In this document: piece by piece, positions 29,087-64,000 of the stretch | Position numbering within the stretch: position 1 is the stretch's first letter | Layout of the letters: each line of letters starts with the position of its first letter | NCBI GenBank assembly: GCA_036257195.1 | Contig: DATAFX010000093.1 | Location: 2,308-66,307, forward strand | DNA: 64,000 nucleotides | From: Candidatus Methylomirabilota bacterium | GTDB taxonomy: Bacteria; Methylomirabilota; Methylomirabilia; Rokubacteriales; DASRDR01 | Reading direction: 5' to 3' | Position numbers and translations under genes: made by a program | The notes under the pieces: model-generated | Told to the model about the DNA's origin: nothing | Seen by the model: the letters and a program-made list of their open reading frames with translations, nothing else | The model's database searches: none

Positions 29087-29305
29087 CGCGCCGCCTCCTC
29101 CGGTCCCCGGTCCGGGCCCGTCCTACTGAACCACCCCCCGCCAGTTTCCGCAAGCCGACGGCCGAGACTCCCCAGTGCTGCGACAAATTGACGGAAACCC
29201 CCGGGAGTGGCGGCAATTTGGCGTGCTCCGCGTTTTGTCGTACCATCGGGCGATGCAGGGTGGCGGTACGGGCTTCGCTCGGGCGTCCCGAGAGGCGGCT
29301 CCAGC

Positions 29306-30826: not shown

Positions 30827-30859
30827 CGGCACGCGCTGACCGCGGCCGGAGGAGATTGG

Positions 30860-32275
30860 ATGGCGGAGGAGCAGAAGACGGACGAGAAGGAGCCGGTGGG
30901 CCTGCGACTGCCGCTCAAGCTCAAGCTCACCCTCCTGATCACGACCCTCCTCGTGCTGACGGTACTGCTCGTGAGCGTATTCCTGGTGCGGCAGGAGCAG
31001 GAGAGCCTCACGAACGAGATGACGAAGCGAGGCCGCACGATCGCCAGGGACCTCGCGAACGCGTCGAAGAATCCGATCCTGTCCAACGACGACCTGACCC
31101 TATCGCTGCTGGTGCAGGATGCCATGAAGGACCCTGATGTCGTCTACGTGGTCTTCGTGGACGCCGACGGCAAGGTGGTGGCGCATCCGGACCTCTCGCA
31201 GATCGGCCTGCGTGTCCAGCGGGCGAATGGCTTGCCGATGGCCGTTGGCGAGACCCAGGTCACGCAGTACGTCGACCCGAAGCACGGCAAGCTCATCGAC
31301 TTCGCGGTCCCGCTGGTGTTCAGCAAGGTATCGGTCGGGTCGCTGTATCTCGGGTTCAGCCGGAAGCCGATCGACCAGGCCACCGCCACCGCGCGGAACT
31401 CGACGATCGTCATCAGCGCCGCCATGATCGTCGTCGGGGTCCTCGGGGCGCTGGGCCTGGCCACCGTGCTGTCGGGGCCCGTGATGCGCCTGGTCGAGGG
31501 CACCCGCGCCGTCGCGGCCGGGAACTTCCAGATCCACCTGCCGGTTACCTCTCGGGACGAGATCGGCGCGCTGACCGAGTCGTTCAACCAAATGGCGAAG
31601 AACCTTCGCGAGAAGGAGATGATCAAGCGGGCGTTCACGCGCTACGTCGCCCGCCAGGTCGTCGACGAGATCCTGAAGGATCCCGAGAAGCTCGCCCTGA
31701 AAGAGGAGCGCCGGGACGTCACCGTGCTCTTCTGTGACATGCGAGGCTTCACGTCCCTGGCCGAGCGCCTGTCGCCGGAAGAAGTCGTCGGCGTGCTCAA
31801 CGACTTCTACACGCTGATGGTGGACACCACGGCGAAGAACGACGGCATCGTGGACAAGTTCCTCGGCGATGGGGTCATGGCCATCTTTGGGGCGCCGATC
31901 GTCCACGAGGATCACCCCACTCGCGCTGTGAAGACCGCGATCGCGATGCAGGCAGGGGTGGCGGAGCTGTCGCGGAAGCGGGCGCGGGACGGCAAGGACC
32001 CGATTGCGGTCGGCATCGGTGTGAGCGCCGGCGAGGCCGTGGCAGGGACGGTCGGTACCGAGGATCGGATGGAGTACACCGTTATCGGCGACAGCGTCAA
32101 CTTGGCGGCGCGGCTCGAATCCAACGCCAAGCCGGGCCAGATCCTGATCAGCCAGCGCACCTTCCAGCGGGTGGACGGCGTCGTGAATGTCCGCACGCTG
32201 GGCGTCATCCGGGTGAAGGGCAAGGAGGAGCAGGTCGAGGTCTACGAGGTCCTCGGCTTGGCGCAGGGAGCGTGA
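30860..32275 (+). CDS. Class III adenylate/guanylate cyclase with periplasmic sensor and HAMP domain
   Basis: TM, extracytoplasmic domain, second TM, HAMP (LTESFNQMAKNL) and a cyclase domain (VTVLFCDMRGFT...FLGDGVMAIFGAP...TVIGDSVNLAARLES). Confidence 0.9.
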   Translation: MAEEQKTDEKEPVGLRLPLKLKLTLLITTLLVLTVLLVSVFLVRQEQESLTNEMTKRGRTIARDLANASKNPILSNDDLTLSLLVQDAMKDPDVVYVVFVDADGKVVAHPDLSQIGLRVQRANGLPMAVGETQVTQYVDPKHGKLIDFAVPLVFSKVSVGSLYLGFSRKPIDQATATARNSTIVISAAMIVVGVLGALGLATVLSGPVMRLVEGTRAVAAGNFQIHLPVTSRDEIGALTESFNQMAKNLREKEMIKRAFTRYVARQVVDEILKDPEKLALKEERRDVTVLFCDMRGFTSLAERLSPEEVVGVLNDFYTLMVDTTAKNDGIVDKFLGDGVMAIFGAPIVHEDHPTRAVKTAIAMQAGVAELSRKRARDGKDPIAVGIGVSAGEAVAGTVGTEDRMEYTVIGDSVNLAARLESNAKPGQILISQRTFQRVDGVVNVRTLGVIRVKGKEEQVEVYEVLGLAQGA

Positions 32276-41642: not shown

Positions 41643-42413
41643 TCAGATCGCGCGCCGCACCACCGTGAGCGTGAGGCCGTGGATGCCGATGGCGCTCGCC
41701 GACGCCAGCGCGTACGTGGGCATGACGGCCATGCGATCGACCAGCGCCCCCACCACGAGCATGAACGTAGCGAAGCCGAACGAGCCCAGCACCATCCCGC
41801 GCAGCAACTGGACAGCCGCCCCCGCGCCCTGGTCCCGCTGCGCGAACACCGCGAGCAGGGCGCCGAATACCGGGATAGGAGACAGCATGCCAGCCAGGGC
41901 GGGTCCGAGCGCCGCGGCCACCGAGGTCAGGCCGAGCACGAGCAGCGCGGCGAGCGCCATCCGGATCGCCAGGTCGCCCGGCAGGAGGCGTGGTGAGGCG
42001 GCCGGCGGACCGCCGTCAGCCATGAGCACGCCGCTCCCGGCGAGGACGACGCAGACGAAGGTGAACGCGAGCCCGATCGGGAGGCTCGCCTCCCGGAACA
42101 CGAGCGTCGACGCGCCGAAGGCGCCGAGCGCCGCGGCGAGAGAGCCAGCCCAGCCGGCCCCTCGCCGGGCCGTCCGACCGTAGGCGAGGCAGAACGCCGC
42201 GAGCGAGACGAGGCCGAAGAGGGTGCCGAGCGCCGCCCGCCCGGCGAACTGGGGTCCCTGCTCGATGGCGAGGACGAAAGAGACGGGGCCGGACGTGAGC
42301 GGGAGGCCGGCCAGCCATCCGCCGACCCCGGGCCCCCAGCGCCGGCCCGCGAGCGTCGCGACGAGGATCAGGATGGGCGCCAGCAGGAGCTTGAGCAGTG
42401 TGGTCGTCGCCAC
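41643..42413 (-). CDS. Hypothetical polytopic membrane protein
   Basis: The C-terminal roughly 257 aa of the 812-aa ORF (from GTG: VATTTLLKLLLAPILILVATLAG...) have 7-8 TM helices. The remaining 550 aa of the ORF are Arg/Gly/Pro antisense junk. Confidence 0.5.
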   Translation of the reverse strand: MATTTLLKLLLAPILILVATLAGRRWGPGVGGWLAGLPLTSGPVSFVLAIEQGPQFAGRAALGTLFGLVSLAAFCLAYGRTARRGAGWAGSLAAALGAFGASTLVFREASLPIGLAFTFVCVVLAGSGVLMADGGPPAASPRLLPGDLAIRMALAALLVLGLTSVAAALGPALAGMLSPIPVFGALLAVFAQRDQGAGAAVQLLRGMVLGSFGFATFMLVVGALVDRMAVMPTYALASASAIGIHGLTLTVVRRAI

Positions 42414-42623
42414 GGGCTCTACCGTCTCACGGCCCGGGAATCCTGCCCACTGGCTCGCTTGACACGCCAGCGGGGGCAGGGCCACACTCCCTCCGCGGCC
42501 TGCCTCTCCGGTCGCGTCCCGAAATCGTGCCCACGAAGCGCCCCGTCCTCGGGTAGCCATGTCGCGGGAGCGTCTGTCCTGAGCATCCGCACCTCGTGGC
42601 CCCGCGCCGTCACCGGCACGGCC

Positions 42624-44078
42624 GTGGTCGTGGTCTTGCTGGCCACGCTCCGACTCTTGTGGCTCTCGCGGAGCTGGCCGCTCGTCCACGACGCGCCCCT
42701 CATGCACTACGTCGCCTGGCGGATCCTGGAGGGCGCCGCGCCCTATCGCGACCTCTTCGACATGAACTTCCCCGGCGTGTACGCGGTGCACCTCCTGCTC
42801 CTCATGACCCTCGGGCCCGGAGACGGGGCGTTCCGCGCGTTCGACGTCGGTCTGCTGGTCGCCGCCGGTGCCGGGCTCTGGACCGCGCTGCGCCGCCCCT
42901 CGGCGTGGGGCGGCCTGGCCGCGGTGGGCCTGTTCGGGCTCTACCACGTCGCCGGCGGTCCCTGGCTTGCCGGACAGCGCGACCTCCTGCTCTGCGTCAT
43001 CTTGGCGTGGGTTGCCGGGAGTGTCATGGCCTCGATCGAGGCGCCGGGGGACGAGGACCGGATCCGCTGGCTCGGCGGTGCGGCACTCGCCCTCGGGCTG
43101 GCCGTGTGGGTCAAACCACACGCCATCGTTCTCGTCCCGGTCCTCGTGGTGTGGGTGTGGTCGGCGCTCCACGGGCGGGCGCGGGGCCGCGCCCTCGTCG
43201 TCGTCGCCGCCGGAGTGGCGCTGCCCGGCGCGGCGGTGGTCGCGTGGCTCGGCTGGACCGGCGGCCTCGCCGCGTTCGTGGACATCGTGGTACGGTACCT
43301 GATCCCGCTCTACAGCCGGCTGGGACGGAACGACCTCTTCCGTGAGATGGCCGCACGCGACTACGGGATCGGCGTGCTGCTCGGCCTCGCCGCCTGGGCG
43401 AGCCTCGGCGCTGCCGCCCTGGCGCGAGCGCGGCAATGGCGAGAGCTCGGGGTGCTGGCGACGGGGGTCGCCTACGGCATCGCGCACTTCGGGGCGCAGG
43501 GAAGAGGATGGGAGTACCACTTCTACCCGCTTGCGCTCTTCGCGACGGCGCTCGGCGGGGCGGGCCTCGGCGCGGCGGTGGCTCACGGGCGCCGGGCGCT
43601 CGCCGTGATGCTGGTGCTCATCTTGGTGGGGATGACGGGCGCGCTGTGGGCGAAGGGCCAGCGCAACCTGGCGCCGGACTGGATCGCCGAGAAGCTCGGG
43701 CGCGTGGACGGCGTGTCGGAGGCCCTCCGGCCGGTCGTCGCGGCGGGAGGGACGGTGCAGGTGTTGGACACGACCGGCGGGGGGATCCACGCGCTGTTCC
43801 GCCTCCACGCGCGGCAGCCCAGCCGCTTTCTCTACGACTTTCATTTCTACCACGACGTCGACCATCCGTACGTGCGGCGTCTTCGCGCCGAGCTGATGGC
43901 CGCGCTCAGAGCGCGGCCTCCGGCCGGGGTCGTGATCTTCGAAGAAGGGTGGACGGCGGGGGGTTACGAGCGCGTGGCGGCTTTTCCGGAGCTCGAGCGC
44001 TGGCTCCGGGAAGGACTCCGGCTCGCGGAGGAGGGCGATGGCTACCGGCTCTACGTCGGACCGGCGGCCCCCCGGTAG
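42624..44078 (+). CDS. Membrane glycosyltransferase of the ArnT/PMT (GT39/GT83-like) superfamily
   Basis: Roughly 480 aa, multi-TM, with the DxD-like periplasmic loop APYRDLFDMNFPG after TM1 and a large C-terminal soluble domain. The start is uncertain (GTG about 42624). Confidence 0.65.
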   Translation: MVVVLLATLRLLWLSRSWPLVHDAPLMHYVAWRILEGAAPYRDLFDMNFPGVYAVHLLLLMTLGPGDGAFRAFDVGLLVAAGAGLWTALRRPSAWGGLAAVGLFGLYHVAGGPWLAGQRDLLLCVILAWVAGSVMASIEAPGDEDRIRWLGGAALALGLAVWVKPHAIVLVPVLVVWVWSALHGRARGRALVVVAAGVALPGAAVVAWLGWTGGLAAFVDIVVRYLIPLYSRLGRNDLFREMAARDYGIGVLLGLAAWASLGAAALARARQWRELGVLATGVAYGIAHFGAQGRGWEYHFYPLALFATALGGAGLGAAVAHGRRALAVMLVLILVGMTGALWAKGQRNLAPDWIAEKLGRVDGVSEALRPVVAAGGTVQVLDTTGGGIHALFRLHARQPSRFLYDFHFYHDVDHPYVRRLRAELMAALRARPPAGVVIFEEGWTAGGYERVAAFPELERWLREGLRLAEEGDGYRLYVGPAAPR

Positions 44079-47958: not shown

Positions 47959-49758
47959 ATGAGCGGCGCCCGATTCGAGGAGCTGTCACGGGCCCACGAG
48001 CGCACCAAGGCCGATCTTGCGCGGGCCACGCGGGAGCTCCGCGAGCTCATCGGGATCGGCGTGCGGCTAGCGGCGGAGCGGGACACGGACGCGCTCCTCG
48101 ACCTGATCCTCACGACGGCCCGCGAGATCACCTGGAGCGACGCGGGCGCGCTCTATCTGGTGGATACGGATGGGAGCGGCACGCGCTGCCTCCGGTCGGC
48201 GCTCGTCCAGAACGACAGCCTGCCCGTGACCATGAAGGAGCACGTTGTCCCGATCGGCCCCCAGAGCGTGCCCGGCTACGCGGCGCTGAGCGGCGAGGTC
48301 GTCAACTTGCCCGACGCCGCCGCCCCGCCCCCGGGGTCGCCGTTCACGAGCGACCGCGTCCTCGACCAGGAGACCGGATATCGCTCGAAGTCCATGCTGG
48401 TCGTGCCGATGAAGACCCCGAAGGGCGAGGTCCTGGGAGTGCTGCAGCTCATGAACCGGAGGCCTGACCGGTCGCGGCGCTCCGGGTCACTCGAGGAAAC
48501 CTCGCGCGACGCGGTCTCCTTTTCCGCGCGCTCCCAGGACCTGGCGATGGCCCTGGCCGCCCAGGGCGCGGTGGCCCTCGAGAACAACCGGCTCTACGCT
48601 GAGCTCCGCGCGGCGCTGGCCACGGTGGAGGAGTCGCAGCAGCGGATCATCCGGAGCGAGCGTCTCCGAGCGCTGGGCGAGATGGCCGGGGGCGTCGCTC
48701 ACGACTTCAACAACGTGCTCGCCGTGGTCATCGGGCGGGCTCAGCTCCTGCAGCGCCAGATCGACGCGCCCGAGCTGCGGCGGCAGCTTCAGATCATCGA
48801 GCACGTTGCCCAGGACGGCGCCCAGACGGTTCGCCGCATCCAGGAGTTCGCACGGATGCGCCGGACCCGACCCTGGCAGCAGGTCGACGTGACTGAGGTC
48901 GTCCGCGAGGTGGTCGAGGCCGCCCGGCCGCGCTGGAGCGACCAGGCTCAGGCGCGCGCCGTGACGTATGCGATGCGGCTCGACCTCGCCCCAGTGCCTC
49001 CAGTGATCGGTGACCCGGCGGAGCTGCGGGAGACCTTCCTCAATCTGCTCTTCAACGCGCTCGACGCGATGCCGCAGGGCGGCTCCGTGACCTTCTCGAC
49101 GCGGGTTGAGGATGGCCGCATCGCCAGCGTGATCGCGGACACGGGCGTCGGCATGAGCGAGGAAGTGCGGCAGCGCTGCTTCGAGCCCTTCTTCACGACC
49201 AAGGCGGAGCATGGAACCGGTCTCGGCCTGTCGATCGCCTACGGGATCGTGACGCGGCACGGGGGCGAGATCGAGGCCTGGAGCCGACCCGGTGCGGGGA
49301 GCCGATTCACCGTGCGCCTGCCGATCGGCGCGGAGATACCCTCGGCTCCGCCCGAGGCGCCGGCGCCGCGCGTGGGCCGGAGCGCGCGGATCCTCGTAGT
49401 GGAGGACGAGGCCGCGGTCCGGGAGGTGCTGGTCGACGTCCTCCAGGCCCAGGGACACGAGGTCGTGGCCTGCGCGGACGGCCCGTCGGCCCTGGCCCAC
49501 GTCGATGGACCGGCGTTCGACCTCGCCCTCGTCGACCTGTCGATGCCGGGGCTCTCCGGCTGGGAGGTCGCCAAGGGCCTCCGCTCGGCGCATCCGACGG
49601 TCCCGATCGCACTGGTCACGGGGTGGGGGGACCAGATCGACTCCGGGGAAGCGCGGACGCGCGGGATCGACTACCTGATGGCCAAGCCCTTCGACGTCGA
49701 TGACATGACGAGGCTCGTGGCCCGCATCCTCGCCCACGAGCCGAACGACGACCGATGA
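47959..49758 (+). CDS. Hybrid sensor histidine kinase (GAF-HisKA-HATPase-REC)
   Basis: GAF domain, H-box VAHDFNNVL, N/G boxes (LLFNALDAM, GTGLGLSI) and a C-terminal receiver (ILVVEDE...DLSMPGLSG). Confidence 0.85.
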   Translation: MSGARFEELSRAHERTKADLARATRELRELIGIGVRLAAERDTDALLDLILTTAREITWSDAGALYLVDTDGSGTRCLRSALVQNDSLPVTMKEHVVPIGPQSVPGYAALSGEVVNLPDAAAPPPGSPFTSDRVLDQETGYRSKSMLVVPMKTPKGEVLGVLQLMNRRPDRSRRSGSLEETSRDAVSFSARSQDLAMALAAQGAVALENNRLYAELRAALATVEESQQRIIRSERLRALGEMAGGVAHDFNNVLAVVIGRAQLLQRQIDAPELRRQLQIIEHVAQDGAQTVRRIQEFARMRRTRPWQQVDVTEVVREVVEAARPRWSDQAQARAVTYAMRLDLAPVPPVIGDPAELRETFLNLLFNALDAMPQGGSVTFSTRVEDGRIASVIADTGVGMSEEVRQRCFEPFFTTKAEHGTGLGLSIAYGIVTRHGGEIEAWSRPGAGSRFTVRLPIGAEIPSAPPEAPAPRVGRSARILVVEDEAAVREVLVDVLQAQGHEVVACADGPSALAHVDGPAFDLALVDLSMPGLSGWEVAKGLRSAHPTVPIALVTGWGDQIDSGEARTRGIDYLMAKPFDVDDMTRLVARILAHEPNDDR

Positions 49759-50156
49759 CCGGCGAGAGGAGCAAGGCTATGGGGTGGGCGAGTGTATCGA
49801 CGGCATTGGCGATCCTGGTACTGAGCTCGGGGTGGATGGAGACGGCCTGGGCTCAGGGAACGGCGTGGATCCACGTCTCCGTGGAGACCCGGGGCGCCGT
49901 GGGAGAACAAGTCAGCACGTTCCGCGCCTTCACCACGTCCGACCAGCCGGGCACGCAGCGGATCGTCGTCGACCGCCTGTGCGTCAAGGGCATCGCCCAC
50001 CGTGTCGAGGAGCGCTGTGTGGCGAACGTGGACTCGGTCGAACTGGTCGAGCGCACCACCGGGCTGCCCGGCATGGGAAGCCTCTGCGTCGAGGCAGTCG
50101 CGTCGGCGGAGTCGAAGGTGGGGCCCCTGTCCGCCACCGCCCGCGCGTGCCCCTGA
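49755..50156 (+). CDS. Hypothetical small secreted Cys-containing protein
   Basis: ATGA-coupled to the kinase, with signal-like ALAILVLSSGWMETAWAQG and four Cys. Weak. Confidence 0.4.
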   Translation: MTGERSKAMGWASVSTALAILVLSSGWMETAWAQGTAWIHVSVETRGAVGEQVSTFRAFTTSDQPGTQRIVVDRLCVKGIAHRVEERCVANVDSVELVERTTGLPGMGSLCVEAVASAESKVGPLSATARACP

Positions 50157-52335: not shown

Positions 52336-52425
52336 CCAGTGAGCACGCCCGGCCGGGACTCTCGCGACGCTCCGGCTGGCGCCGGGCCGACTGATGACAG
52401 AGGCGGCCCCGGCCGTCTAACTGCC

Positions 52426-55014
52426 ATGGGCTCGTTCGGGCGCTGGATCCGCCAACGGCGCGTCCTGGCGGCCTTCGCGGCGGGCGCCCTCCTGACGCTC
52501 GGGGCGGTCGCCATCGTCGGCTACCTGATCCTGGCCGACCAGCGGCGCTCGGCCCGCGTCCTCGCCGCGGCCCTCACCCAGGCGCTCGAGCGCGAGGTCC
52601 GGATCGAGCGCGTCACGGATCTCGGCCCCTCCCGGGTCGTCCTTCGAGGCCTCCGGCTTCCCGCGGAGCGGGGCTGGCCGGCGGACGTCAAGGCTGAGTC
52701 GGTGGAGGTTACCGGCCCGCTCCTGGCGGCGGCGCGCGGCGAGGCCGCACCGGTCCGGATCCTAGTGACGCGACCGACGGTCGGCGTCGGAGGAGGGGGC
52801 ACGACGGGCGCCGCGGCGCTCGAAGGGCTCCGGCAGGGTCTGGCGAGTCTGGTCGGAAACGCCGCGCTCCTCGACGTCGCGATCGAGGGAGGGGTGCTGG
52901 AGGTTCCGGGAGCCGCCGCCGAGACGGCGACTTTCGACGCCACACTCCACAAGGGGAGCGGTGAGGCGCGTGGAGAAGTGGTGTTCCGGAACCGGGCGCC
53001 ATCCCGGTTCACGCTGGGACTCCACGCGCGGGCGGAGGGCGACACGATTCATCTGAACCTGGCCGGCGAGGGTCGACTCGAGCCCCTGTCGCCCTGGCTG
53101 CCGGCCGCACTGACGCGGGCGGCGGGGACGACGCCGGTAGGCGCGCGCGCTCAGCTCGCGCTCTCGCCGGGCGACCGCGCCGGAGGCCACGCGAGCGCGC
53201 GGCTCGGTGACCTCGCTGCGGTCGAGGGGACGCTCTCCGTTCAGGACAAGCGAGTCCGCTTCACGGGGCTTCGCGGCACCGCCGACCTCGGGTTCGCCGG
53301 AACGACCGCGGGGCTGGCGGGTCCCGTGAAGGGCCGCGTGGAGCTCGCCGAGGGCGAGGTCACCTGGGTGCCGGAGCGTGGTGGGCCGCCGGAGGCGCGG
53401 GTCACGCTGCACCTGCTGGACGCGGCGCTGCCGGCCTCCGCTACCGGCGTCAACGTACTCGCCCGCGCGGTGGAGGCCCGGCTCACGCTCGAGCCCCGTC
53501 CAGGGGGCGCCAGCGCGCGGGGCGAGCTTCGCGGCGAGCGCGTCGAGGTGGCCGGACTCGAGCTGGCGCCGCTGGCGACTCCGCTGCGGGTTGATCTCGA
53601 CGCCGGCGGCGGCGTCTCGCGGGTCGAGTTGACCGGCCTGACCGCAGAGGTCCACGGGTTGCCGCTCCGGGGCACGGTGGCCTACGACGTGGCGCGGGGA
53701 CGGGCAGACGCCCGGGTCGAGTCGAGCGCGGCGCGTCTCGACACGCTCGCCCGCCGTCTCGGGGTGGACATGCTCGGCCCGTCGGACCAGCTCCGCGCCT
53801 CGAGCGTCCGGGTGGTCGTGACGGCGCTCGACCCGAGAGGCTGGAGCGACGGGAAGGTCGAGACGGAGATCCGCGGCCTGGTCCTCCGGCAGCCCGAGGG
53901 CGAGGCTGCCGTCGAGCGCGCGAGCCTCACCGCGGACGTCCGGTCCGGGGGCGCGGCCATCGCCCTCGCGGCCGAGCGGGTGCGGGGCGCCTTGCCCCGG
54001 TTCGAGGGACTGGTGCCACGGGTCGTCGGCTCCGCCGACGTCGATCGTCCCGACGGGAGCGCGCGCCTCGCCCGCGCCACGGTGACGGCACGTGACGGGG
54101 AGGGCCGCGAGATGCTCCAGGCGGACATCGCACGTCAAGGGGCCGGCGGCGCGGCGCCCGTACGATTGACGGCGCGGATGCCCGCCCTCGAGCGTCTCGC
54201 GTCGCTCTGGCCGTCCGTCCCCCGGCAAGCGTACGGGTCCGCGACGGTCGAGCTCCAGGCGCCGGACTTGGGGTTCGGCGCGTACGACGGCCGGCTCGGC
54301 CTCAAGGTCGCCACCACGGAGCTCCTCGGCGGCCGCTTGAGCCTCCGGGACGTGACGGCCGACGTGCCGCTCTACCGTGGCAAGAGCGCCGCGACGGCCG
54401 CTCCCATGTCCGGTGGATCGCTCGCCGTGGGAGAGCTGATCGGATACGGGGTCGTCCTGTACGACCTTACGGGGAAGGGTCGGATGATAGACGAGCGGCT
54501 CGCGCTCGACGATCTCCGCTACGCGCTGTACTCGGGCCAGGGCCAGGGGACGCTCGAACTTGAGCTCGCCGCCGCCGGGCCGACGGCACGTGGGCGGCTC
54601 ACGGGAGAAAACGTGCGCATCGAGGAGTTCATCGCCGCCTACGGGATCCGTGGCGGCACGATGACGGGTCTTCTGCGGTACGATCTAACCATGCGCTACG
54701 GTGGCGGCCGTTTGGGAGCGGATGGTCGGTTCCTGGTGCCGGAGGGAGGAACGGTCACGATCGAGCTGCTGGACCGTTTCCTCTCGTACGCGTCCGCCGA
54801 TCCGAGCGGCGTGGTGAAGCGCGCCCTCGGGAACCTCCGAGCCTTCGATTTCAAGGCGGCCGAGGCGACGGTCCGCACGGCCAGCGACGACCTCCGGGTG
54901 AGTCTGAGCCTCCAGGGCCGGGAGCGCCTCGGCATCTTCCCGCCGCGAGTGAAGGAGATCAATGTGCGCGACATGCCCATCGGGTTCCTGGCGCGGCAGT
55001 TTCCGGGCCTGTGA
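52426..55014 (+). CDS. ydbH: YdbH-like AsmA-family large periplasm-spanning protein
   Basis: About 862 aa with an N-terminal TM anchor (LAAFAAGALLTLGAVAIVGYLIL) and a long Gly/Ala/Arg-rich beta-rich body with a YdbH-type C-terminus. The start is taken at MGSFGRW. Confidence 0.7.
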   Translation: MGSFGRWIRQRRVLAAFAAGALLTLGAVAIVGYLILADQRRSARVLAAALTQALEREVRIERVTDLGPSRVVLRGLRLPAERGWPADVKAESVEVTGPLLAAARGEAAPVRILVTRPTVGVGGGGTTGAAALEGLRQGLASLVGNAALLDVAIEGGVLEVPGAAAETATFDATLHKGSGEARGEVVFRNRAPSRFTLGLHARAEGDTIHLNLAGEGRLEPLSPWLPAALTRAAGTTPVGARAQLALSPGDRAGGHASARLGDLAAVEGTLSVQDKRVRFTGLRGTADLGFAGTTAGLAGPVKGRVELAEGEVTWVPERGGPPEARVTLHLLDAALPASATGVNVLARAVEARLTLEPRPGGASARGELRGERVEVAGLELAPLATPLRVDLDAGGGVSRVELTGLTAEVHGLPLRGTVAYDVARGRADARVESSAARLDTLARRLGVDMLGPSDQLRASSVRVVVTALDPRGWSDGKVETEIRGLVLRQPEGEAAVERASLTADVRSGGAAIALAAERVRGALPRFEGLVPRVVGSADVDRPDGSARLARATVTARDGEGREMLQADIARQGAGGAAPVRLTARMPALERLASLWPSVPRQAYGSATVELQAPDLGFGAYDGRLGLKVATTELLGGRLSLRDVTADVPLYRGKSAATAAPMSGGSLAVGELIGYGVVLYDLTGKGRMIDERLALDDLRYALYSGQGQGTLELELAAAGPTARGRLTGENVRIEEFIAAYGIRGGTMTGLLRYDLTMRYGGGRLGADGRFLVPEGGTVTIELLDRFLSYASADPSGVVKRALGNLRAFDFKAAEATVRTASDDLRVSLSLQGRERLGIFPPRVKEINVRDMPIGFLARQFPGL

Positions 55015-55574
55015 TGATGACGAAGCGAAGGCTCGCCGCCCACGCTCTGGCCCTCGCGACGCTCGCGCCTGCCGTCGCCGCCTGCGTGCCAGTGACCGTC
55101 AACATCACCTTTCCCCAGGAGCAGCTCGACGCCGCGGCGCGGAAGATCGAGGACATGCCAGCCCCGGCCGCGGCCACCCCCCCGCCGCCGGCTCCGCCCC
55201 CCGGCGGGGGCCGGACGGTTGACGTGACGCCCAGGGTCGACACCCGGTCGCCCGAGGTCGTCAAGGCGAACGCGTCCCGCCGCGAGCGCCGCCCCGCGCT
55301 CCGCGAGTGGAAGAATCGGGGCTGCGTCGGCGAGACGAACCAGGGGACGCTGGTGGCCCGGCCCGGCGACGGATGCGGTCCGGAAGTCGCGGCGCTGATC
55401 CGCGACGAGAACGCCGACCGCCGGATCATCTACGACGTGTTCATGAAGGAGAACAACATTCCGGCAGCCGACCGGCCGCGTGTGAACAGCGCCTTCGCGA
55501 AGGCCCGCCAGGAGCGCTCGCGCCCCAATGACTGGATTCAGCTGGAAGACGGCCAATGGGCCAGGAAGTCGTGA
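55014..55574 (+). CDS. Fusion lipoprotein: YnbE-like N-domain plus YdbL-like (DUF1318) C-domain, copy 1
   Basis: Lipobox PAVAAC, then VPVTVNITFPQEQLDAAARKIEDM (YnbE-like), a Pro-rich linker, and ...GCVGETNQGTLVARP...IIYDVFMKENNIPAADRPRVNSAFAKARQ...WIQLEDGQWARKS (YdbL-like). Confidence 0.7.
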   Translation: MMTKRRLAAHALALATLAPAVAACVPVTVNITFPQEQLDAAARKIEDMPAPAAATPPPPAPPPGGGRTVDVTPRVDTRSPEVVKANASRRERRPALREWKNRGCVGETNQGTLVARPGDGCGPEVAALIRDENADRRIIYDVFMKENNIPAADRPRVNSAFAKARQERSRPNDWIQLEDGQWARKS

Positions 55575-55603
55575 CCAGGCGGGTGCCAAAGGGGGAGCGC
55601 ACG

Positions 55604-56236
55604 ATGGGCACGATGGGGCGGATCCGCTTCGGCTGCCACGTTGGGATTCTCGTGCTGACGGCGGTCCTCGCCGCCTGCGTCCCGGTGACGGTGAACATCA
55701 CGTTCCCCCAGGAGAAGCTCGACGACGCGGCGAACCAGATCGTGGACATGAGCCGGCGGCCGGAGGGCGTGCCGCCGCCTGGGTCATCGTCGCCCGGTGG
55801 CGCCCCGCCCAAGCCGGGCTCGAGCCTCGACCGGTGGCCGGTGCGCCTGGGGCCCCGCGAAGCCTTCGCCGAGGAACGCCGGATCGAGGTGGCGCAGGCG
55901 CCGAAGACGGACAGCGTGGAGCTCCGCCGGCTGACCGAGTCGCAGAACCAGCGCCTGGGCGCGCTCCAGCAGTGGATGGCCCGCGGATGCATCGGGGAGA
56001 GCAACCAGGGGTTGGTGGAGCCGCGTCCCGGGCAGGGCTGCTCCGGCGAGGTCGCGAGGCTGATCGGGGACGAGAACCGGGATCGTCAGGCGATCATCGA
56101 GACCTTCATCCGCCAGAACAACATGGCGGCCTCGGAGGCGGGGCGCGTCAAGGCGTCGTTCGCCAAGGCCTACCGTGAACGAGCTCAGGGCGGGCAGTGG
56201 ATCCAGACCGATCAGGGGGAGTGGGTGAAGAAGTAG
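55604..56236 (+). CDS. YnbE-YdbL fusion lipoprotein, copy 2 (tandem paralog)
   Basis: LAAC lipobox, VPVTVNITFPQEKLDDAANQIVDM and ...GCIGESNQGLVEPRP...WIQTDQGEWVKK. AAGGGGGAG ribosome-binding site. Confidence 0.7.
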   Translation: MGTMGRIRFGCHVGILVLTAVLAACVPVTVNITFPQEKLDDAANQIVDMSRRPEGVPPPGSSSPGGAPPKPGSSLDRWPVRLGPREAFAEERRIEVAQAPKTDSVELRRLTESQNQRLGALQQWMARGCIGESNQGLVEPRPGQGCSGEVARLIGDENRDRQAIIETFIRQNNMAASEAGRVKASFAKAYRERAQGGQWIQTDQGEWVKK

Positions 56237-56946
56237 CCTTGCCGCTGCGTGCCGTCTTCCTGGACGCGGGCAACACGCTGGTCGGTCTGGACTACGACAC
56301 GATCGCGCGCCGGATCGGGGACGAGGGGCACCGGGTCGAGGCGCCCGCGGTGCGGTCCGCGGAGGCGCGCGCCCGCGTCCGGCTGGATCCCCACCTCGCC
56401 GCCCGCCAGTCGACGGAGACCGCGGACGTCTTCACCCGCTACGTGCGATACGTGCTCGAGGAGCTCGGGCTCGGATGGGGCGAAGGGAGCGAACGCCTCG
56501 TGCAGGACCTGCGCGCCGTCAACCCGCCCTTCGGGCTGTGGTCGGTGTGCCTGCCCGAGGCGCCGGGGGCGCTCGCGGCGCTCCGCCGGCTCGGGCTCCG
56601 GCTGGCCGTCGTCTCGAACTCGAACGGCACGGTGGCCCGCCTCCTCGAAGCGCTCGGTCTCGCGCGTTGGCTGGACGCCGTCGTCGACTCGGGCGTGGTC
56701 GGATTCGAAAAGCCCGATCCCCGGATATTCCGCCACGCGGCGTCGATTCTCGGCGTGGAGCCCCAGGAGGCGGTCCACGTGGGCGATCTCTACTCCGTCG
56801 ACGTCATCGGCGCGCGCGCGGCCGGGGCCCGCGCCATCCTCCTCGACCCCTGCGGCGCCTGGGTGGTGGACGACTGCCCGAAGGCTCGCGACATCGACGA
56901 TGCCGCGCGCCTGATCGCGCGATGGCGTGAGGGCGCCGGAGGCTAG
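56221..56946 (+). CDS. HAD-superfamily hydrolase
   Basis: Motif I AVFLDAGNTLV, motif II VVSNSNG and motif III/IV (GFEKPDPRIF...HVGDLYSVDVIGARAAG). GTG or TTG start. Confidence 0.75.
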   Translation: MGEEVALPLRAVFLDAGNTLVGLDYDTIARRIGDEGHRVEAPAVRSAEARARVRLDPHLAARQSTETADVFTRYVRYVLEELGLGWGEGSERLVQDLRAVNPPFGLWSVCLPEAPGALAALRRLGLRLAVVSNSNGTVARLLEALGLARWLDAVVDSGVVGFEKPDPRIFRHAASILGVEPQEAVHVGDLYSVDVIGARAAGARAILLDPCGAWVVDDCPKARDIDDAARLIARWREGAGG

Positions 56947-59003: not shown

Positions 59004-60248
59004 CTACCTCCATCGAGCCGAGAGGACGGACTTCTCGGCTTCGAAGGCCGAACCGACTCGCTCCAGGGCGTCGGCGCCCCCGGGCGAGGATCCGGCCTGG
59101 GTTTCGAGCACGAATGCGGCGATCCGACCGAGATAGAGCGGCGTCAGCGCCCGAAGGAGGTGATCCCGGGGCAGCCGCCGTTCGTGGTGAGCCACCGCGA
59201 AGTCGACGACCACGCGAGCCCACAGGGGTGGCGGGAAGCGGAAATCGTCGGGTCCGAGGAGTCCCAACGGATAGAGTTGACCGAGCGTCTCGTCCGACAG
59301 GGCCTGCTCCCAAAGCGGGAGGAGATCCTTCAGGCCGAGGTGAAAGGCCCGGACCATCCGATCCGGCCGGACGTCACCGGCCGGCGGCGCCATGGACCCC
59401 GCGTGACCCCGCCGGGGGACCGGCACGCTCCCCCGCACGTCCTGCCACGTGCCGGGATCGCGCTCCATGAGGCGGAAGAGCGGCCCGACGGCGTCCACGA
59501 GGGTGTGGGCCAGATCGGTGGGAGCCACGCCGGGATCGAGCTGTTTCCGCCCCAGGTGCACCTCGACTACCGCATGCTGGCGGGTCAGGGCCTGGCCGAG
59601 AAGCCGCATCTCCGCTCCCTGGCCCGTCGGCTCGTCGTCCCACTCCTCCGCCGGGGGCAGGGTGTCGAGGAGCGCGGCCGAGACCCCCGCGCAGCCCCCG
59701 AGCACTTCCTGGAGGCGCTTGCCGAAGAGCGCGCGCACGAGGGGTCCCAGGAGATTCGTGGTGAGCGTGCCGTCCGTGAGCGCTCGGTCGTAGACGGGCG
59801 AGACGTAGTCGGCGTCCCCGCCGAGCGCGGGAGCCAGGAGGATCTCGACCGACTCGGGGGCGAGACTGACGAGGCCCGCGTCGACGACGCTCGCGGCGCG
59901 GGCCCCGACGTGCCGCGCCGCGGCCAGTGCCGCGAGGACCGCCCGCCCTCGGCCTGGGCGCCCCGCCACGCGGGCGCTCGCGACGGGCACGGCCCCGCCG
60001 TCTACGGGGCGCTGGCTGACGCCTTCGAAGGTGCCGTCCTGCGATCCGCCGTCGACGAAGAGGACGGCGGCTTTCCGCCCGGCGAACCCACGGGCCAGTC
60101 CGGCGGCCACGGTGTCCACGACGCCCCCCGCAGTGTGGGCCTGGTTCAGTGCCGTGACGGCGACCAGCGCCTCCACGGGCCCGAGGGCCTCGACGGATGC
60201 GGCGCCGTCGGGCGGGAGCACGGCCGCGAGGGTGAGCCCGTCGCCCAC
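59004..60248 (-). CDS. GT-A fold glycosyltransferase-like protein
   Basis: VLFVDGGSQDGT (GT2-type DGGSxDGT) and GGDADYV (DxD). The remainder is unusual. The function is not assignable. Confidence 0.5.
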   Translation of the reverse strand: MGDGLTLAAVLPPDGAASVEALGPVEALVAVTALNQAHTAGGVVDTVAAGLARGFAGRKAAVLFVDGGSQDGTFEGVSQRPVDGGAVPVASARVAGRPGRGRAVLAALAAARHVGARAASVVDAGLVSLAPESVEILLAPALGGDADYVSPVYDRALTDGTLTTNLLGPLVRALFGKRLQEVLGGCAGVSAALLDTLPPAEEWDDEPTGQGAEMRLLGQALTRQHAVVEVHLGRKQLDPGVAPTDLAHTLVDAVGPLFRLMERDPGTWQDVRGSVPVPRRGHAGSMAPPAGDVRPDRMVRAFHLGLKDLLPLWEQALSDETLGQLYPLGLLGPDDFRFPPPLWARVVVDFAVAHHERRLPRDHLLRALTPLYLGRIAAFVLETQAGSSPGGADALERVGSAFEAEKSVLSARWR

Positions 60249-60258
60249 GCCGCCCTCG

Positions 60259-61461
60259 CTAGGCGGTCATCTGGGCGAGGAGGGCCAGGTAGTCCCCCAG
60301 GTGACGCGGCAGCAGGAAGTTGCGGCGCACGTACTCACGGGCAGCCCCGCCCAGGCGCGCGGCAAGGTCGGGACTCTGGAGAAGCTGCCGGATGCGGAAC
60401 GCCGCCCCCTCGACCGAGCCCACGGTGTAGCCGGTGACCTCGGAGAGGACCTGGGCCGGGATCCCGCCCGCGACGCTTCCCACGACCGGCTTGCCCTTCC
60501 ACATCGCCTCGGCCACGGCCAGGCCGAACCCCTCCTGCCGCGGCAGGTGCAGGACCACGGTCGCCGCCCGCTGGAGCGCGTTCAGCTCCCGGGCGGCGTC
60601 GGGCGGTATCACCAGCACGTGGGCGTCCGAGTCCTGTCCCGCGGCCTCGCGGAGCTCGGCCAGGACGGCGCTCCCCTCCGGGTTGTCCGTCGCCCCCCAG
60701 CCCGCGAGCACGAGCCGGCACGACACGTACTTCCGCGCGAGATAGAAGGCGGTCAGCGCCCCCTTGGGATCGGCGGCGCGGGAGTAGGCGCCGATCTGGA
60801 GGAGGATCGGCTTGTCCCGGGGAATGCCGAAGCGATCCAGGACCTCGCGCACCTCGCTCCGTCCGAGCTCCCGGTTCTTCTCGCCGAGCGGATCGATCGA
60901 GGGATGGACGACCAGCATCGGGACGCGGACCCGCTGGGCGAACTTGGGCATCGAGTACACGACGACGTCGTAACGCTCGAGGTCGCGGCGCACGAGGTGC
61001 CAAGCGCGCCGCCAGGCATGGGAAAGGTCGGCGTGGCAGCGCCAGGCCCAGCGACCGCGCTCCGAGCGGTGGCGGACCAGCGGCAGGGCCGGAAGGTCAT
61101 GGACCATGACGAGGTCGGACTCGAGCCGGAGCGCGGCGGCGTTCGTCGCGGCGGTCTCCACGTAGGAGACGAGCATGGCTTCCGTGATGGTTGCTGGCTG
61201 GCCGCCGAGGGCGGTCTCGAGCGCGCGAGCCGCTCCGTAAAACGTCGGGTCTCCGACGATCACCTCCCACGTGGCATCGACACCCAGGTCCTGGAACAAG
61301 GGCACGAGCCGAGCCAGGATCTCCGAGGACCCGCTGCCGTAGCGGCTGGCGTTGACGTGGACGAAGCGCCGTCCCTGCAGCCGCTCCGCGAGCTTCAGCA
61401 GGAGATCGATCGCGCCCCGCGGCGCGACGTCACGGTAGTCCTCGAGGCGCGCACCGGTCAT
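60259..61461 (-). CDS. treT: Trehalose synthase TreT-type (GT4, NDP-glucose:glucose glucosyltransferase)
   Basis: 400 aa from MTGARLEDYRD. FVHVNASRYGSGSSEIL...DATWEVI, WAWRCHADLS, SIDPLGEKN and EGFGLAVAEAMWKGKPVVGS are collinear with archaeal/bacterial TreT. ATGA-coupled to the upstream gene. Confidence 0.8.
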   Translation of the reverse strand: MTGARLEDYRDVAPRGAIDLLLKLAERLQGRRFVHVNASRYGSGSSEILARLVPLFQDLGVDATWEVIVGDPTFYGAARALETALGGQPATITEAMLVSYVETAATNAAALRLESDLVMVHDLPALPLVRHRSERGRWAWRCHADLSHAWRRAWHLVRRDLERYDVVVYSMPKFAQRVRVPMLVVHPSIDPLGEKNRELGRSEVREVLDRFGIPRDKPILLQIGAYSRAADPKGALTAFYLARKYVSCRLVLAGWGATDNPEGSAVLAELREAAGQDSDAHVLVIPPDAARELNALQRAATVVLHLPRQEGFGLAVAEAMWKGKPVVGSVAGGIPAQVLSEVTGYTVGSVEGAAFRIRQLLQSPDLAARLGGAAREYVRRNFLLPRHLGDYLALLAQMTA

Positions 61462-63710
61462 CGGCCGGCTCCCGCGGCCAACGCCTCGTCGAGGAGCGCG
61501 ATGAGCCGCACCCGGGCCTGCTCGAGGCCGGCGGCGTAGGGGTTCACGGCCTGGACGCGGGCGGCCAGCTCGGGCAGCCCGAGGCCTCGCTCGAGCCAGG
61601 CCGCGAAGTCGTTGCGCCCCCGGCCGAGCCGAAGCCGGGCCTCGACGAGGTGGAAGTAGAGGGCGCTCTGGTCGATCTCGAGGAGGGCGTTCCGGAGCTC
61701 GGGGAGCGTTCGCGCCTCGACTCCCGTCGGGACCTCGACGATCTTCGACTGTATGAAATCGAAGGGCTCCCCGGATACCAGCTGCGGCACGATGCCGAGA
61801 CGTCGGAGATGCTCGTCCACCACCGACACCAGCTCTTCCCGAAGGGCCTGCAGACTCGTGAAGTCGGCGGGGTCCACCATCGCTAGCCGCTCGCCCAGGA
61901 TCCGGTCCCGCACCTGGACGTCGACCCACGTTGCGAAATCGTTCGGGTATGGTCCGATCGCGAGCCGATGCCGCAGCAGGAAGCCGTGGGTGTGGTAGTA
62001 GATCGAGTCGAGCGGAACCTCGTCCAGGAGCTGGGCCAGCTGCCGCTCGTTTTCCGAGCGAAGGCCGACGAACTCCTTGAGCTCCATGCACGCCGTGAAG
62101 ACGAAGGGGCCCTCGCCCGGCTGGAGCCGCCCGGCCGCCGGACCGGGGAGCCTCGCGATCGCGCGCTCGAGCGCGGCAACGGGGACCCCGACCCAGGCGG
62201 GGCGATTGGCGAGCTCGTATCCGAGCTCGTAGAGCGCCTTGTCAAGCTCGTAGGCGTGGAGCGCTCGATCGAACGGCTCGCGCTCCCTCGGCACCAACGT
62301 CGGGCCACCGGCCCCGCCCACCTCGCCGAGATACGCCTCCAGGAACGCGGCCCGCATTCCCTCCTCCCACGTGTCGGCCCAGGGCCGGAGGCGCTCCTCC
62401 AGCCGAGCCTCGTGGGGGCTCGCCTCCAGGCGGCGTCCGAGGGCAACGCGCGCCGCGTAGGCGAACGAGCGGAGCATCCCGGCCACGTCCTTGAGCACGC
62501 ACTGCTTCGCCTGCCGCTCGGCCAGGGTCCGCGCGGGCTCGCCCTCGAAGTCCAGGATGGTGAAACCGTCTGCGGTTCGCAGGAGCTGCCCGAGATGGTA
62601 GTCGCCGTGAACGCGGATCTTCACGACGCCCGCGGCCGCGAGCGAGTCCACAACGCGCAGCGCATCCCCGAGCCGTGCGCCGTCGGCCGCGACTCGTGCC
62701 GCCGATCCCTGGAGGACCGGCGGGAGGCGCGGCAACCCGTCGGCGAGCGCTTGGGTCGCCCGGCCCAACTGGTCGAGCATCGCTTCCATCCAGGCGGCCG
62801 CGTCGCCCGCGGTGATCGGCTCGGGGGCCAGGGCGTGGCCCGGCGGTGCCGAGGCCAGCGCTCGGTGAAGGCGACCGGTGAGCACGCCGAGCCGAGCCGC
62901 CTCGTGCGCGTCGGCCGACGCCAGAGCGCGGGCGAACACGGGGTCCGGCGACTCCTCCCCCCGTCCCTCGATCGCGGCGGCATAGTACTCGACGAGCCGC
63001 TCCAGGGTGGCTGTCCACGCGTCCCCCTGGTTCGGGACGAACTCGTCCAGCACGGCCAGCGTGACCGGCTCCGCCCCCTCGGCCTGATAGGCAACGGAAC
63101 CGGCGAGCCGGGGGGCACCGGCGAATGCCGCCTGGCGGGTAAGGAAATCCGTCAGCTCGAGCTCGGGGCTCGGACCGGATTGAAGCCGCCTGAACAGCTT
63201 CAGGATGCCCCGGCGGTCGTAGACGATCGAGGTGTTACTCTGCTCACCGGCGATGGGTCGGGACTCGTGGGGCGCGGTCGGCAGGATCTCGGCCAGGACC
63301 GGCGTCGCCGTGAACCGAAACGTGCCGCGGGTGCCCGCGAGCGTCCCGCCGTTCCGGATCGCCTCCAGCAGAGCCAGGCCGAACGCTGGATCGCCCATCG
63401 CGTCGGTGAACGGCTCCTGGCCGGCGCCCGGCGGTGCGACGGGGATGCAGTAGCGCTCCCGACCCTGGTCGCCGAAGATCACGTCGAACAGGGCGAGCAG
63501 CCCGGTGGTCCCAGGTATCGCGGTGTGATCGGCCGGGGTGACCAGGGAGACGTCCCGGTTCTTGCTGCCGAACCAACGCTGGCCGCTCAGGGTATCTCGC
63601 AGGGCGGCGGCGGCGCGGACGGTGAGAGCCTCCGACGCCGAGGGCTCGCGATCCCGGGTCGGGGTCTCGCCGCGCCGCCTGGCGGTCACCGGGTTACCCT
63701 CGCTCGGCAT
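61458..63710 (-). CDS. Maltokinase (Mak/Pep2)-like kinase fused to a roughly 270-aa C-terminal domain of unknown function
   Basis: QRWFGSKNRD (Mak N-cap), HGDYHLGQLL and ILDFEGEP (kinase catalytic/Brenner), ...YELANRPAWVGVP (Mak C-terminus), then an extra domain (FVFTACMELKEF...SIYYHTHGFLLRHRL...NPYAAGLEQ). Start taken at MPSEGNP. Confidence 0.75.
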   Translation of the reverse strand: MPSEGNPVTARRRGETPTRDREPSASEALTVRAAAALRDTLSGQRWFGSKNRDVSLVTPADHTAIPGTTGLLALFDVIFGDQGRERYCIPVAPPGAGQEPFTDAMGDPAFGLALLEAIRNGGTLAGTRGTFRFTATPVLAEILPTAPHESRPIAGEQSNTSIVYDRRGILKLFRRLQSGPSPELELTDFLTRQAAFAGAPRLAGSVAYQAEGAEPVTLAVLDEFVPNQGDAWTATLERLVEYYAAAIEGRGEESPDPVFARALASADAHEAARLGVLTGRLHRALASAPPGHALAPEPITAGDAAAWMEAMLDQLGRATQALADGLPRLPPVLQGSAARVAADGARLGDALRVVDSLAAAGVVKIRVHGDYHLGQLLRTADGFTILDFEGEPARTLAERQAKQCVLKDVAGMLRSFAYAARVALGRRLEASPHEARLEERLRPWADTWEEGMRAAFLEAYLGEVGGAGGPTLVPREREPFDRALHAYELDKALYELGYELANRPAWVGVPVAALERAIARLPGPAAGRLQPGEGPFVFTACMELKEFVGLRSENERQLAQLLDEVPLDSIYYHTHGFLLRHRLAIGPYPNDFATWVDVQVRDRILGERLAMVDPADFTSLQALREELVSVVDEHLRRLGIVPQLVSGEPFDFIQSKIVEVPTGVEARTLPELRNALLEIDQSALYFHLVEARLRLGRGRNDFAAWLERGLGLPELAARVQAVNPYAAGLEQARVRLIALLDEALAAGAGR

Positions 63711-64000
63711 CGGGCCTTCTGCTTGCGGCGCCCGGCGGCGGCCCGTGGCGGCGGCCGGGCGCATGGGCCTCGATAAGGGTCTGGTAGAGCGCGAGAGTCC
63801 GGCGGGCCACCGTGGCCCACCCGAAATGCGCCTCGGCCCGCTGCCGCCCCTTCACGCCCATGGTCCGTCGGAGCGCGGGGTCCGCCAGCAGGGTGTTCAG
63901 CGCGCGCGCCAGGGCCCGCGCGAATCCATCGGCATCGCGTGGCTCGACCACTCCGTCGTGCTCGATCAGTTCGACGGGGACGAGGAGGCCGGTCTCCCCG
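63694..64000 (-). CDS. GT4 glycosyltransferase, C-terminal fragment (the gene continues beyond the window end)
   Basis: The open frame to position 64000 encodes ...GETGLLVPVELIEHDGVVEPRDADGFARALARALN...RRTMGVKGRQRAEAHFGWATVARRTLALYQ, a typical GT-B/GT4 C-terminus. Confidence 0.6.
   Translation of the reverse strand, partial: GETGLLVPVELIEHDGVVEPRDADGFARALARALNTLLADPALRRTMGVKGRQRAEAHFGWATVARRTLALYQTLIEAHAPGRRHGPPPGAASRRPDAERG

Follow-up and report, generated by a model that had tools for sequence, protein, structure and literature searches.

In Escherichia coli and Pseudomonas aeruginosa, an intermembrane bridge is built by YdbH, YnbE and YdbL (Kumar et al. 2024, PMC11126948; De'Ath et al. 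2026, PMC13464000; PMC12447247). Whether YdbL belongs stably to the complex, or is a transient regulator that limits the multimerisation of YnbE and is removed by DegP, is a current question. A block of three genes at positions 52426-56236 (plus strand) of a stretch of 64,000 nucleotides from a Candidatus Methylomirabilota bacterium (contig DATAFX010000093.1; this whole stretch is called the window) bears on this question, as it encodes a large protein followed by two lipoproteins, A and B, that each carry a YdbL-type domain behind a short lipidated segment. Does this block encode such a bridge, with a YnbE-like anchor and YdbL joined in one chain? The window has a G+C content of 70-75% throughout and its host is a soil bacterium of the Rokubacteria group.

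Our answer is that the block would be an envelope module working like E. coli YdbH-YnbE-YdbL, with another division of labour between the polypeptides. We give this reading a probability of roughly 60%. The YdbH-YnbE-YdbL system itself is known; what appears to be new is its variant with a fused and duplicated anchor-chaperone lipoprotein. No natural YnbE-YdbL fusion is mentioned in the searched literature on the system. For specialists, the block offers comparative support for a direct 1:1 relation between YnbE and YdbL, provided that the lipidated segment is indeed the equivalent of YnbE.

A linked gene block and its YdbL domains

The block is filled by three translationally linked genes. 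The gene of the large protein (52426-55014, +) lies in an open reading frame (ORF) spanning 52339-55014 (+), and its ATG at 52426 gives a product of 862 aa, which is the length of 58 full-length homologues. This product is a candidate bridge protein, predicted to be anchored in the inner membrane and all-beta, with a repeating beta-groove (RBG) of the AsmA/YdbH kind. The lipoprotein A gene (55014-55574, +) encodes 186 aa from the ATG at 55014, or 187 aa from the GTG at 55011. Its start codon and the stop codon of the large gene overlap (TGATG), in a way similar to E. coli, where ynbE overlaps ydbH by 4 nt. The lipoprotein B gene (55604-56236, +) encodes 210 aa and is preceded by a ribosome-binding site read directly from the sequence (AGGGGGAG; 55590-55597, +), with the ATG at 55604 six bases further on. 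Lipoprotein B is the paralogue nearer to the single-copy form of other lineages. A scan for promoters and terminators inside the block gave nothing above chance.

A preliminary description of this DNA had proposed the same layout, namely a protein of about 862 aa followed by two paralogous lipoproteins, and the ORFs and the lengths of the homologues bear it out. The two lipoproteins are indeed paralogues (40% identical, E 3e-48), and the motifs that had been quoted for them, i.e. a lipidated N-segment, a Pro-rich linker and GC[VI]GE[TS]NQG...G[QE]W.[RK]K, are all present in both. The public protein P0001, annotated as [quoted passage not shown], is identical to lipoprotein A (186 aa). Identical or near-identical proteins have been deposited from metagenome-assembled genomes of Methylomirabilota/Rokubacteria.

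The C-terminal domains of A and B are true YdbL/DUF1318 domains. They had been predicted as such, and the hidden Markov model (HMM) PF07027 found both above its curated cut-off of 27 bits, at 55287-55568 (+) in A (56.1 bits, E 5.5e-15) and at 55949-56233 (+) in B (53.3 bits, E 4.1e-14). Matches in sequence and in fold to the structure of E. coli YdbL (PDB 28oj) agree with this. Searched with phmmer, lipoprotein A matched 28oj_A with E 2.6e-7. In an AlphaFold2 (AF2) model of A based on 112 sequences, the domain has a predicted local distance difference test score (pLDDT) of 92-97, and Foldseek matched this model to 28oj with E 1.5e-5, a template modelling score (TM-score) of 0.88 on the target, a root-mean-square deviation of 1.5 Å and 31% identity. 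An extra N-terminal helix, at residues 80-101 of the model, precedes the domain of A and overlaps the start of the Pfam match; E. coli YdbL has a much shorter N-terminal helical loop. The fused proteins of TA06 and of Omnitrophota and one of distant Rokubacteria (L019) scored 47-60 bits with PF07027, while a frameshifted copy at locus L027 gave no match. A free periplasmic YdbL with its own cleavable signal peptide, as in E. coli, was not encountered. The domain is instead the C-terminal part of a lipoprotein, covalently joined to a YnbE-like element of 25 residues, and the fused gene is duplicated in the window, which again differs from E. coli.

The functional residues of YdbL are largely kept. 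Residue equivalences were taken from the alignment with 28oj and from the mutational table of De'Ath et al. 2026 (PMC13464000). Equivalents are found for L24, R28 (as K), E35, N58, E60 (as D), R61, Y65, L68 (as F), N72, W104 and K107; across the 159 sequences of the fused family, these positions vary little or not at all. Ten of the eleven residues needed at the interfaces (those just listed without E60, plus Y40) are thus identical or conservatively replaced. Y40 is the only listed functional residue that the fused lipoproteins do not keep, and the B paralogues alter the equivalents of Y65 and R28. In E. coli YdbL, most of the listed residues are needed for function and line the interfaces with the YnbE helix and with YdbH (PMC13464000). 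Because their equivalents are conserved, the pocket that binds the C-terminal helix of YnbE and the two residues assigned to contact with YdbH are under selection here.

The YdbL-type domain of A also holds an invariant pair of cysteines, C104 (55323-55325) and C121 (55374-55376), in the motif GC[VI]GE...G.GC, with an equivalent pair in B. These two cysteines are lacking in E. coli YdbL. They may form a disulfide in the periplasm.

The lipidated N-segment and the YnbE question

The mature lipoproteins start with a short segment that is the proposed equivalent of YnbE. In A (55083-55157, +), it consists of the lipobox Cys, an alternating and strand-prone stretch, VPVTVNITF, and a predicted helix, PQEQLDAAARKIEDM; in B, it reads CVPVTVNITFPQEKLDDAANQIVDM (55676-55750, +). 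The lipoboxes, recognised by eye, are VAA before the Cys in A and LAA before the Cys in B, and follow [LVA][AGPSTV][AG]C in 120 homologues. The motif of the segment, C-VPVTVNITFPQE.LD.AA..I.DM, is nearly invariant; as quoted for A and B, it is CVPVTVNITFPQE[QK]LD.AA..I.DM directly after the lipobox.

This N-segment is the most conserved stretch of the lipoproteins and its conservation extends across three phyla. It is nearly invariant in the 120 homologues, whose overall identity is 63-100%, and no variation occurs at C, VPVTVN, Q, L and AA in 112 aligned sequences with 46-92% identity to A. Of the 25 residues of the segment, 20 are identical between A and B. As the codons of six of these 20 differ synonymously, the identity indicates purifying selection on the protein, and recent gene conversion between the paralogues, considered as its source, was rejected. 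In the AF2 monomer of A, the helix at residues 35-47 has block-mean pLDDT values of 81-86, compared with block means of 55-62 for the signal peptide and values below 50 for the linker.

The preliminary description had called this segment YnbE-like, and the family models did not support membership of the YnbE family. The YnbE model PF13617 gave no match at E<=10, either with full proteins or with isolated N-segments, in Rokubacteria, TA06 or Omnitrophota; as a control, E. coli YnbE matched it with 3e-16 over residues 26-59. Further results likewise weigh against a YnbE-like N-segment. An HMM built from seven YnbE sequences (E. coli, Citrobacter, Pseudomonas, Azospirillum, two Photobacterium and Proteus) scored the N-segment with 1-2 bits, which is not significant, and the P values of 0.03-0.12 given by hhalign between N-segment and YnbE are not significant either. 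A search with the N-segment profile among 1.84 billion representative proteins found no standalone small lipoprotein linking it to YnbE; its 36 matches were fused lipoproteins, fragments or frameshifted copies, plus two false positives among repeat proteins. Finally, the strand segment after the Cys is modelled as coil in the AF2 monomer of A. The strand of E. coli YnbE is reported to behave alike when it is modelled with YdbL but without YdbH (PMC13464000).

A change that is correlated between the helix and the pocket belongs to the same balance. Residue E46 of the helix is replaced by V in 17 sequences, and all 17 also have I or V in place of Y140 of the pocket, the equivalent of Y65. K100, the equivalent of R28, is L, M or Q in nearly all distinct patterns printed for these E46V sequences, with P0237 (Arg) as the exception. 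Contact between helix and pocket would lead one to expect such a co-change of E46 and Y140. As the change is essentially one evolutionary event, we take it as a hint only.

Homology of the N-segment to YnbE is therefore unproven. In the best hhalign path, residues 14-37 of mature YnbE (ITINMNVKIEHEIIIKADKDVEEL) fall without gaps on residues 2-25 of the N-segment, strand on strand and helix on helix. A search for homologues of E. coli YnbE returned near-identical enterobacterial sequences only, and hhalign with these was uninformative. With the seven-sequence HMM, no ORF for a YnbE of proteobacterial type was found anywhere in the window.

A YnbE-like role is nevertheless favoured, for several reasons. 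The segment sits at the position of ynbE, between the groove gene and the YdbL domain, and has the same translational coupling. Its layout is alike, with a lipid anchor, an alternating strand of hydrophobic and Asn/Thr residues and an acidic helix. The YdbL pocket is conserved, yet the operon holds no other ligand for it. In every lineage, moreover, an Asn-centred hydrophobic motif is present both in the last strand of the groove protein and in the strand of the lipoprotein: VNLNVNL in YdbH and ININLNV in YnbE, KEINVRDM and VTVNITF in Rokubacteria, YTVNISMD and VVNVYVTF in Omnitrophota. As for the view of the lipoproteins as a fused and duplicated variant of the known module, the duplication and the fusion with YdbL are present and the functional reading is reasonable, while the identity with YnbE is not demonstrated.

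The linker adds another argument. In A, the Pro-rich linker (55158-55226, +) is predicted to be disordered (pLDDT below 50 at residues 52-59 and 61-70) and is variable in the alignment. The linkers of B-type and single-copy proteins from three phyla (L019, L023-L026, P0221, P0228 and P0232) contain a K/R-rich stretch, a short hydrophobic patch and A-x-A-[QE]. In B of the window, the element reads LDRWPVRLGPREAFA followed by EE (55826-55870, +), and its patch is charged and barely hydrophobic, with a maximum Kyte-Doolittle mean over 10 residues of 0.03 in the linker. The patch is clearer in relatives, for example in P0228 (GGVAVLAAWLAPAPAEA followed by QE) and at L019 (GPWLALLAPAPAEA followed by QI). 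Single-copy relatives share both this element and the segment after the helix with B; paralogue A lacks the element. Judged from these linkers, the element has the appearance of a decayed signal peptide that once belonged to a separate ydbL. It stands at the position of the signal peptide of a separate ydbL and is the remnant expected from a read-through fusion of ynbE and ydbL, which favours the YnbE-like role.

The simplest competing view is that A and B are plain lipid-anchored YdbL proteins, in which the N-segment is a conserved tether or docking peptide without any role of YnbE, and that the groove protein reaches the outer membrane otherwise or with a YnbE-type partner encoded elsewhere. 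This view agrees with the lack of HMM or significant profile similarity to YnbE and of standalone intermediates among the 1.84 billion representatives. It also agrees with the size of the segment, which has 25 residues compared with 45 in mature YnbE and is devoid of the 12-residue N-terminal tether of the latter. A tether alone would not need the highest conservation of the whole protein across three phyla, however. The strand-plus-helix layout and the retained pocket for a YnbE helix, with no other ligand in the operon, suit a YnbE-like role, and the signal-peptide-like element indicates a fusion with a separate upstream lipoprotein gene. On balance, we consider a mere tether rather unlikely, although it is the most serious of the alternatives.

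The same linker element could instead be functional. The fused chain, perhaps only in the B and single-copy forms, would then be a precursor cut at the A-x-A, which would release a lipopeptide of the size of YnbE and a free YdbL-like protein in equal amounts. The conservation of the K/R-rich stretch, hydrophobic patch and A-x-A-[QE] in B-type linkers of three phyla speaks for this idea. Against it, an internal hydrophobic segment that comes after an already translocated part is wrongly oriented for signal peptidase I in Sec topology, the patch of B in the window is charged, and paralogue A is entirely devoid of the element. Cleavage of this kind seems very improbable.

The large protein and the proposed bridge

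The large protein carries an N-terminal transmembrane anchor, read from the sequence at residues 13-36 (VLAAFAAGALLTLGAVAIVGYLIL; 52462-52533, +), which is preceded by four Arg and lies within a predicted helix spanning residues 3-54. In the AF2 model (58 sequences, pLDDT 85.6), this helix is followed by about 45 strands of 9-15 residues broken by short helices, and the model shows a fold of the beta-groove class. Foldseek against the PDB found the LPD-3 (BLTP1) complex, 9cap_A, as the top and sole convincing match (E 3.9e-7, prob 1.0), the other matches being chance-level barrels. The TM-scores to LPD-3 are low (0.14-0.20), as expected for long, flexible rods. Both elements looked for, a repeating beta-groove and an N-terminal membrane anchor, are hence predicted in this protein.

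Family models tell a different story, which speaks against a YdbH in the strict sense. Taken whole or in thirds, the protein gave no Pfam or NCBIfam match at E<=10, and this includes PF11739, which is now a full-length model of 893 positions and which E. coli YdbH matched with 3e-291 in the same library. Its 87 homologues are all annotated as "hypothetical" and none of the 87 has a Pfam domain. BLASTP and hhalign detected no significant similarity to E. coli YdbH, and the profile of the large protein had no match among PDB sequences. Full-length hhalign against one or six proteobacterial YdbH gave P 0.025-0.03, which is not significant, along paths that run collinearly in the C-terminal third.

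The most conserved part of the large protein is a C-terminal module formed by its last 66 residues (54814-55011, +; ending in ALGNLRAFDFKAAEATVRTASDDLRVSLSLQGRERLGIFPPRVKEINVRDMPIGFLARQFPGL), in which invariant and near-invariant columns cluster. Compared by hhalign with the C-termini of six proteobacterial YdbH, this module gave P 0.003 over 39 columns (..VKRALGNLRAF..LSLQGRER) that end before the last strand, and 1 of 200 column permutations reached the score. The similarity is weak and confined to the first 40 or so residues of the module; the last strand and the helix were compared by eye only. By eye, both modules share F.Y..L...V......L.[VL].L.G... and then P.V..[IL]N[VL]...[IMV]P..[LF]L. 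An HMM made from the six YdbH C-termini found only noise among all ORFs of the window.

We call the large protein groove-type, and YdbH-like by its predicted fold, its size, its anchoring and its gene context. The preliminary description had gone further and named it a YdbH-like member of the AsmA family. The anchored, all-beta groove fold and the size of YdbH stand, in the model and the sequence respectively, while, for lack of a match to PF11739, we do not count it as a PF11739 member.

Another beta-rich envelope protein, such as an adhesin-like protein or an assembly factor that DUF1318 lipoproteins serve in a different manner, would account for the lack of any AsmA-family match, for the low TM-scores and for the non-significant full-length comparison with YdbH. 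Such a protein would not be expected to resemble a repeating beta-groove protein as its one convincing structural match, nor to combine an N-terminal membrane anchor and a YdbH-like size with a C-terminal module whose similarity to YdbH exceeds the permutation background. In addition, the gene is tightly coupled to genes for YdbL domains, the only known role of which is with YdbH-YnbE (PMC11126948, PMC13464000). We regard a non-bridge function as improbable, and a YdbH-like bridge as the preferred reading of the large protein.

The resemblance to the E. coli system concerns several levels. The order is the same, with an anchored groove protein, a lipoprotein and a YdbL domain, and with a stop/start overlap. 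The sizes are close (862 aa compared with 879 aa for E. coli YdbH) and each large protein is anchored in the membrane near its N-terminus. The fold of YdbL and its functional residues are shared, and the lipoprotein element is in both cases a strand, predicted here from the sequence, followed by an acidic helix. Among bridge-like lipid-transfer proteins of the RBG type, such as the AsmA-like TamB and YhdP or the eukaryotic BLTP1/LPD-3 and VPS13, the predicted fold class and the single N-terminal membrane anchor are common features. In contrast to these, the large protein has no family membership detected by sequence and, like YdbH, it is far shorter than TamB, YhdP and LPD-3. For this reason, it probably needs a partner at the outer membrane to span the periplasm. 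The pairing of TamB with TamA, or with the lipoprotein partner TamL in Bacteroidota (PMC12045153), follows a common concept, in which an inner-membrane groove protein is completed by a partner anchored in the outer membrane. Unlike TamA, which is an Omp85 barrel, the partner in the window would be a short strand-helix element that carries the lipid and is fused to a YdbL domain.

A mechanism can be proposed on this basis. The large protein would hold to the inner membrane by its single N-terminal helix and extend a long beta-groove into the periplasm, presumably for lipid transport. The lipidated Cys would tether each lipoprotein, presumably to the outer membrane. The amphipathic strand of nine residues in each lipoprotein, VPVTVNITF, would pair by beta-augmentation with the terminal strand (..KEINVRDM) of the groove protein, in the manner of YnbE on YdbH, and the strand of A and/or B would thereby cap the far end of the groove. 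The helix PQE.LD.AA..I.DM may dock in cis in the YdbL-fold pocket of its own chain, which the flexible Pro-rich linker would permit and which would be a cis counterpart of the contact between YdbL and the YnbE helix demonstrated in E. coli, while the YdbL-type domain could also touch the groove protein through a patch formed by W182 and K185. Through the fusion, anchor and chaperone would have a fixed 1:1 ratio and the YdbL domain would stay where the bridge meets the outer membrane; the fusion would in this manner stand in for the free YdbL of E. coli, which is dosage-sensitive and controlled by DegP (PMC13464000). The two paralogues might supply two stacked strands, that is, a hetero-version of YnbE multimerisation.

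If this single-chain reading is true, bridges of the YdbH type are far more widespread than annotation suggests, and in these lineages the YdbL-type domain, instead of acting as a transient regulator open to degradation, is a permanent subunit of the outer-membrane end in a 1:1 ratio. The clade of the window would then stack two diverged copies, with their co-changed helix and pocket residues, as a defined hetero-cap. The full combination, i.e. single-chain "YnbE-YdbL" proteins in at least three phyla with a groove protein invisible to family models, a permanent 1:1 subunit at the end of the bridge and a hetero-cap made of A and B, is put forward tentatively, at somewhat less than even odds. 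The covalent fusion of a YnbE-like anchor and YdbL in three phyla is independent comparative support for the view that, at the outer-membrane end, each acts on the other in a 1:1 ratio, and it supplies a minimal anchor motif of 25 residues for structural and genetic work.

Distribution and genomic surroundings

The pair of a membrane-anchored large protein and a fused lipoprotein is conserved with its synteny in three phyla. A scan with one genome per species gave 26 loci, 22 of them in Rokubacteria/Methylomirabilota or relatives, one in TA06 and three in Omnitrophota. Tandem A and B are found in one Rokubacteria clade only, represented by 13 distinct loci besides the window; just one copy, resembling B, is present in more distant Rokubacteria, in TA06 and in Omnitrophota. 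Since the single B-like copy is widespread and tandem copies are confined to this clade, the fusion is old and the duplication recent.

In distant Rokubacteria, the large protein (734 aa) is clearly homologous to that of the window (E 3e-43). In TA06 and Omnitrophota, the gene before the fused lipoprotein encodes instead a protein of 494-541 aa that is anchored in the membrane and has no Pfam match (L023 2947-4572; L024 3385-4926; L025 3358-4842; L026 3382-4866). The Omnitrophota partner has no detectable similarity to the large protein of Rokubacteria, either over the full length or between their C-terminal modules, where 6 of 100 permutations reached the score. The C-terminal module of the TA06/Omnitrophota partner aligned with that of YdbH by hhalign (P 0.012) over 52 columns that include the final strand, a score reached by none of 100 permutations. 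From this profile similarity, the partner may be a short and so far unrecognised YdbH-like family. As YdbH-sized groove proteins annotated as "hypothetical" evade all Pfam models of the AsmA family, they are likely to be undercounted when outer-membrane lipid transport is surveyed in uncultured diderm phyla.

The surroundings of these loci differ between lineages. In TA06 and Omnitrophota, the fused lipoprotein is directly followed by a gene for a PMT_2/ArnT-type glycosyltransferase (L023 5200-6441 and L024 5586-6791, both Pfam-scanned; same position in L025 and L026), and at L024-L026 the next ORF resembles, by eye, a GT2-type glycosyltransferase. This neighbourhood is an envelope-related context. 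In the window, a gene for a HAD-family hydrolase (56239-56946, +) starts 3 nt past the stop of lipoprotein B, with which it may be co-transcribed. Its position downstream of B is kept in the clade of the window and at L027, while more distant Rokubacteria have another downstream gene, which looks enoyl-CoA hydratase-like by eye.

In one public protein, P0173 (1088 aa), the large protein appeared to be fused with DUF1318. P0173 was rejected as a frameshift read-through and is not a real fusion. Frameshifted public copies of the lipoprotein genes were also seen at L007 (4313-5710), L027 (4974-5720) and L028 (2242-2931); these frameshifts are probably assembly errors, which are able to mimic fusions.

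Elsewhere in the window, a gene for an MscS-type mechanosensitive channel with a C-terminal cyclic-nucleotide-binding domain (29192-30826, +) is followed directly by a gene for an sCache-HAMP-adenylate/guanylate cyclase (30827-32275, +), and the two may form a signalling pair. Three other ORFs had no Pfam match: 41997-44078 (+, 693 aa), 59004-60266 (-, 420 aa) and 49755-50156 (+, 133 aa). The first two have a coding-like codon bias, and the N-terminal stretch of the 133-aa ORF appears hydrophobic. The 420-aa ORF adjoins genes for a trehalose-synthase-like glycosyltransferase and a DUF5752 protein (61458-63851, -).

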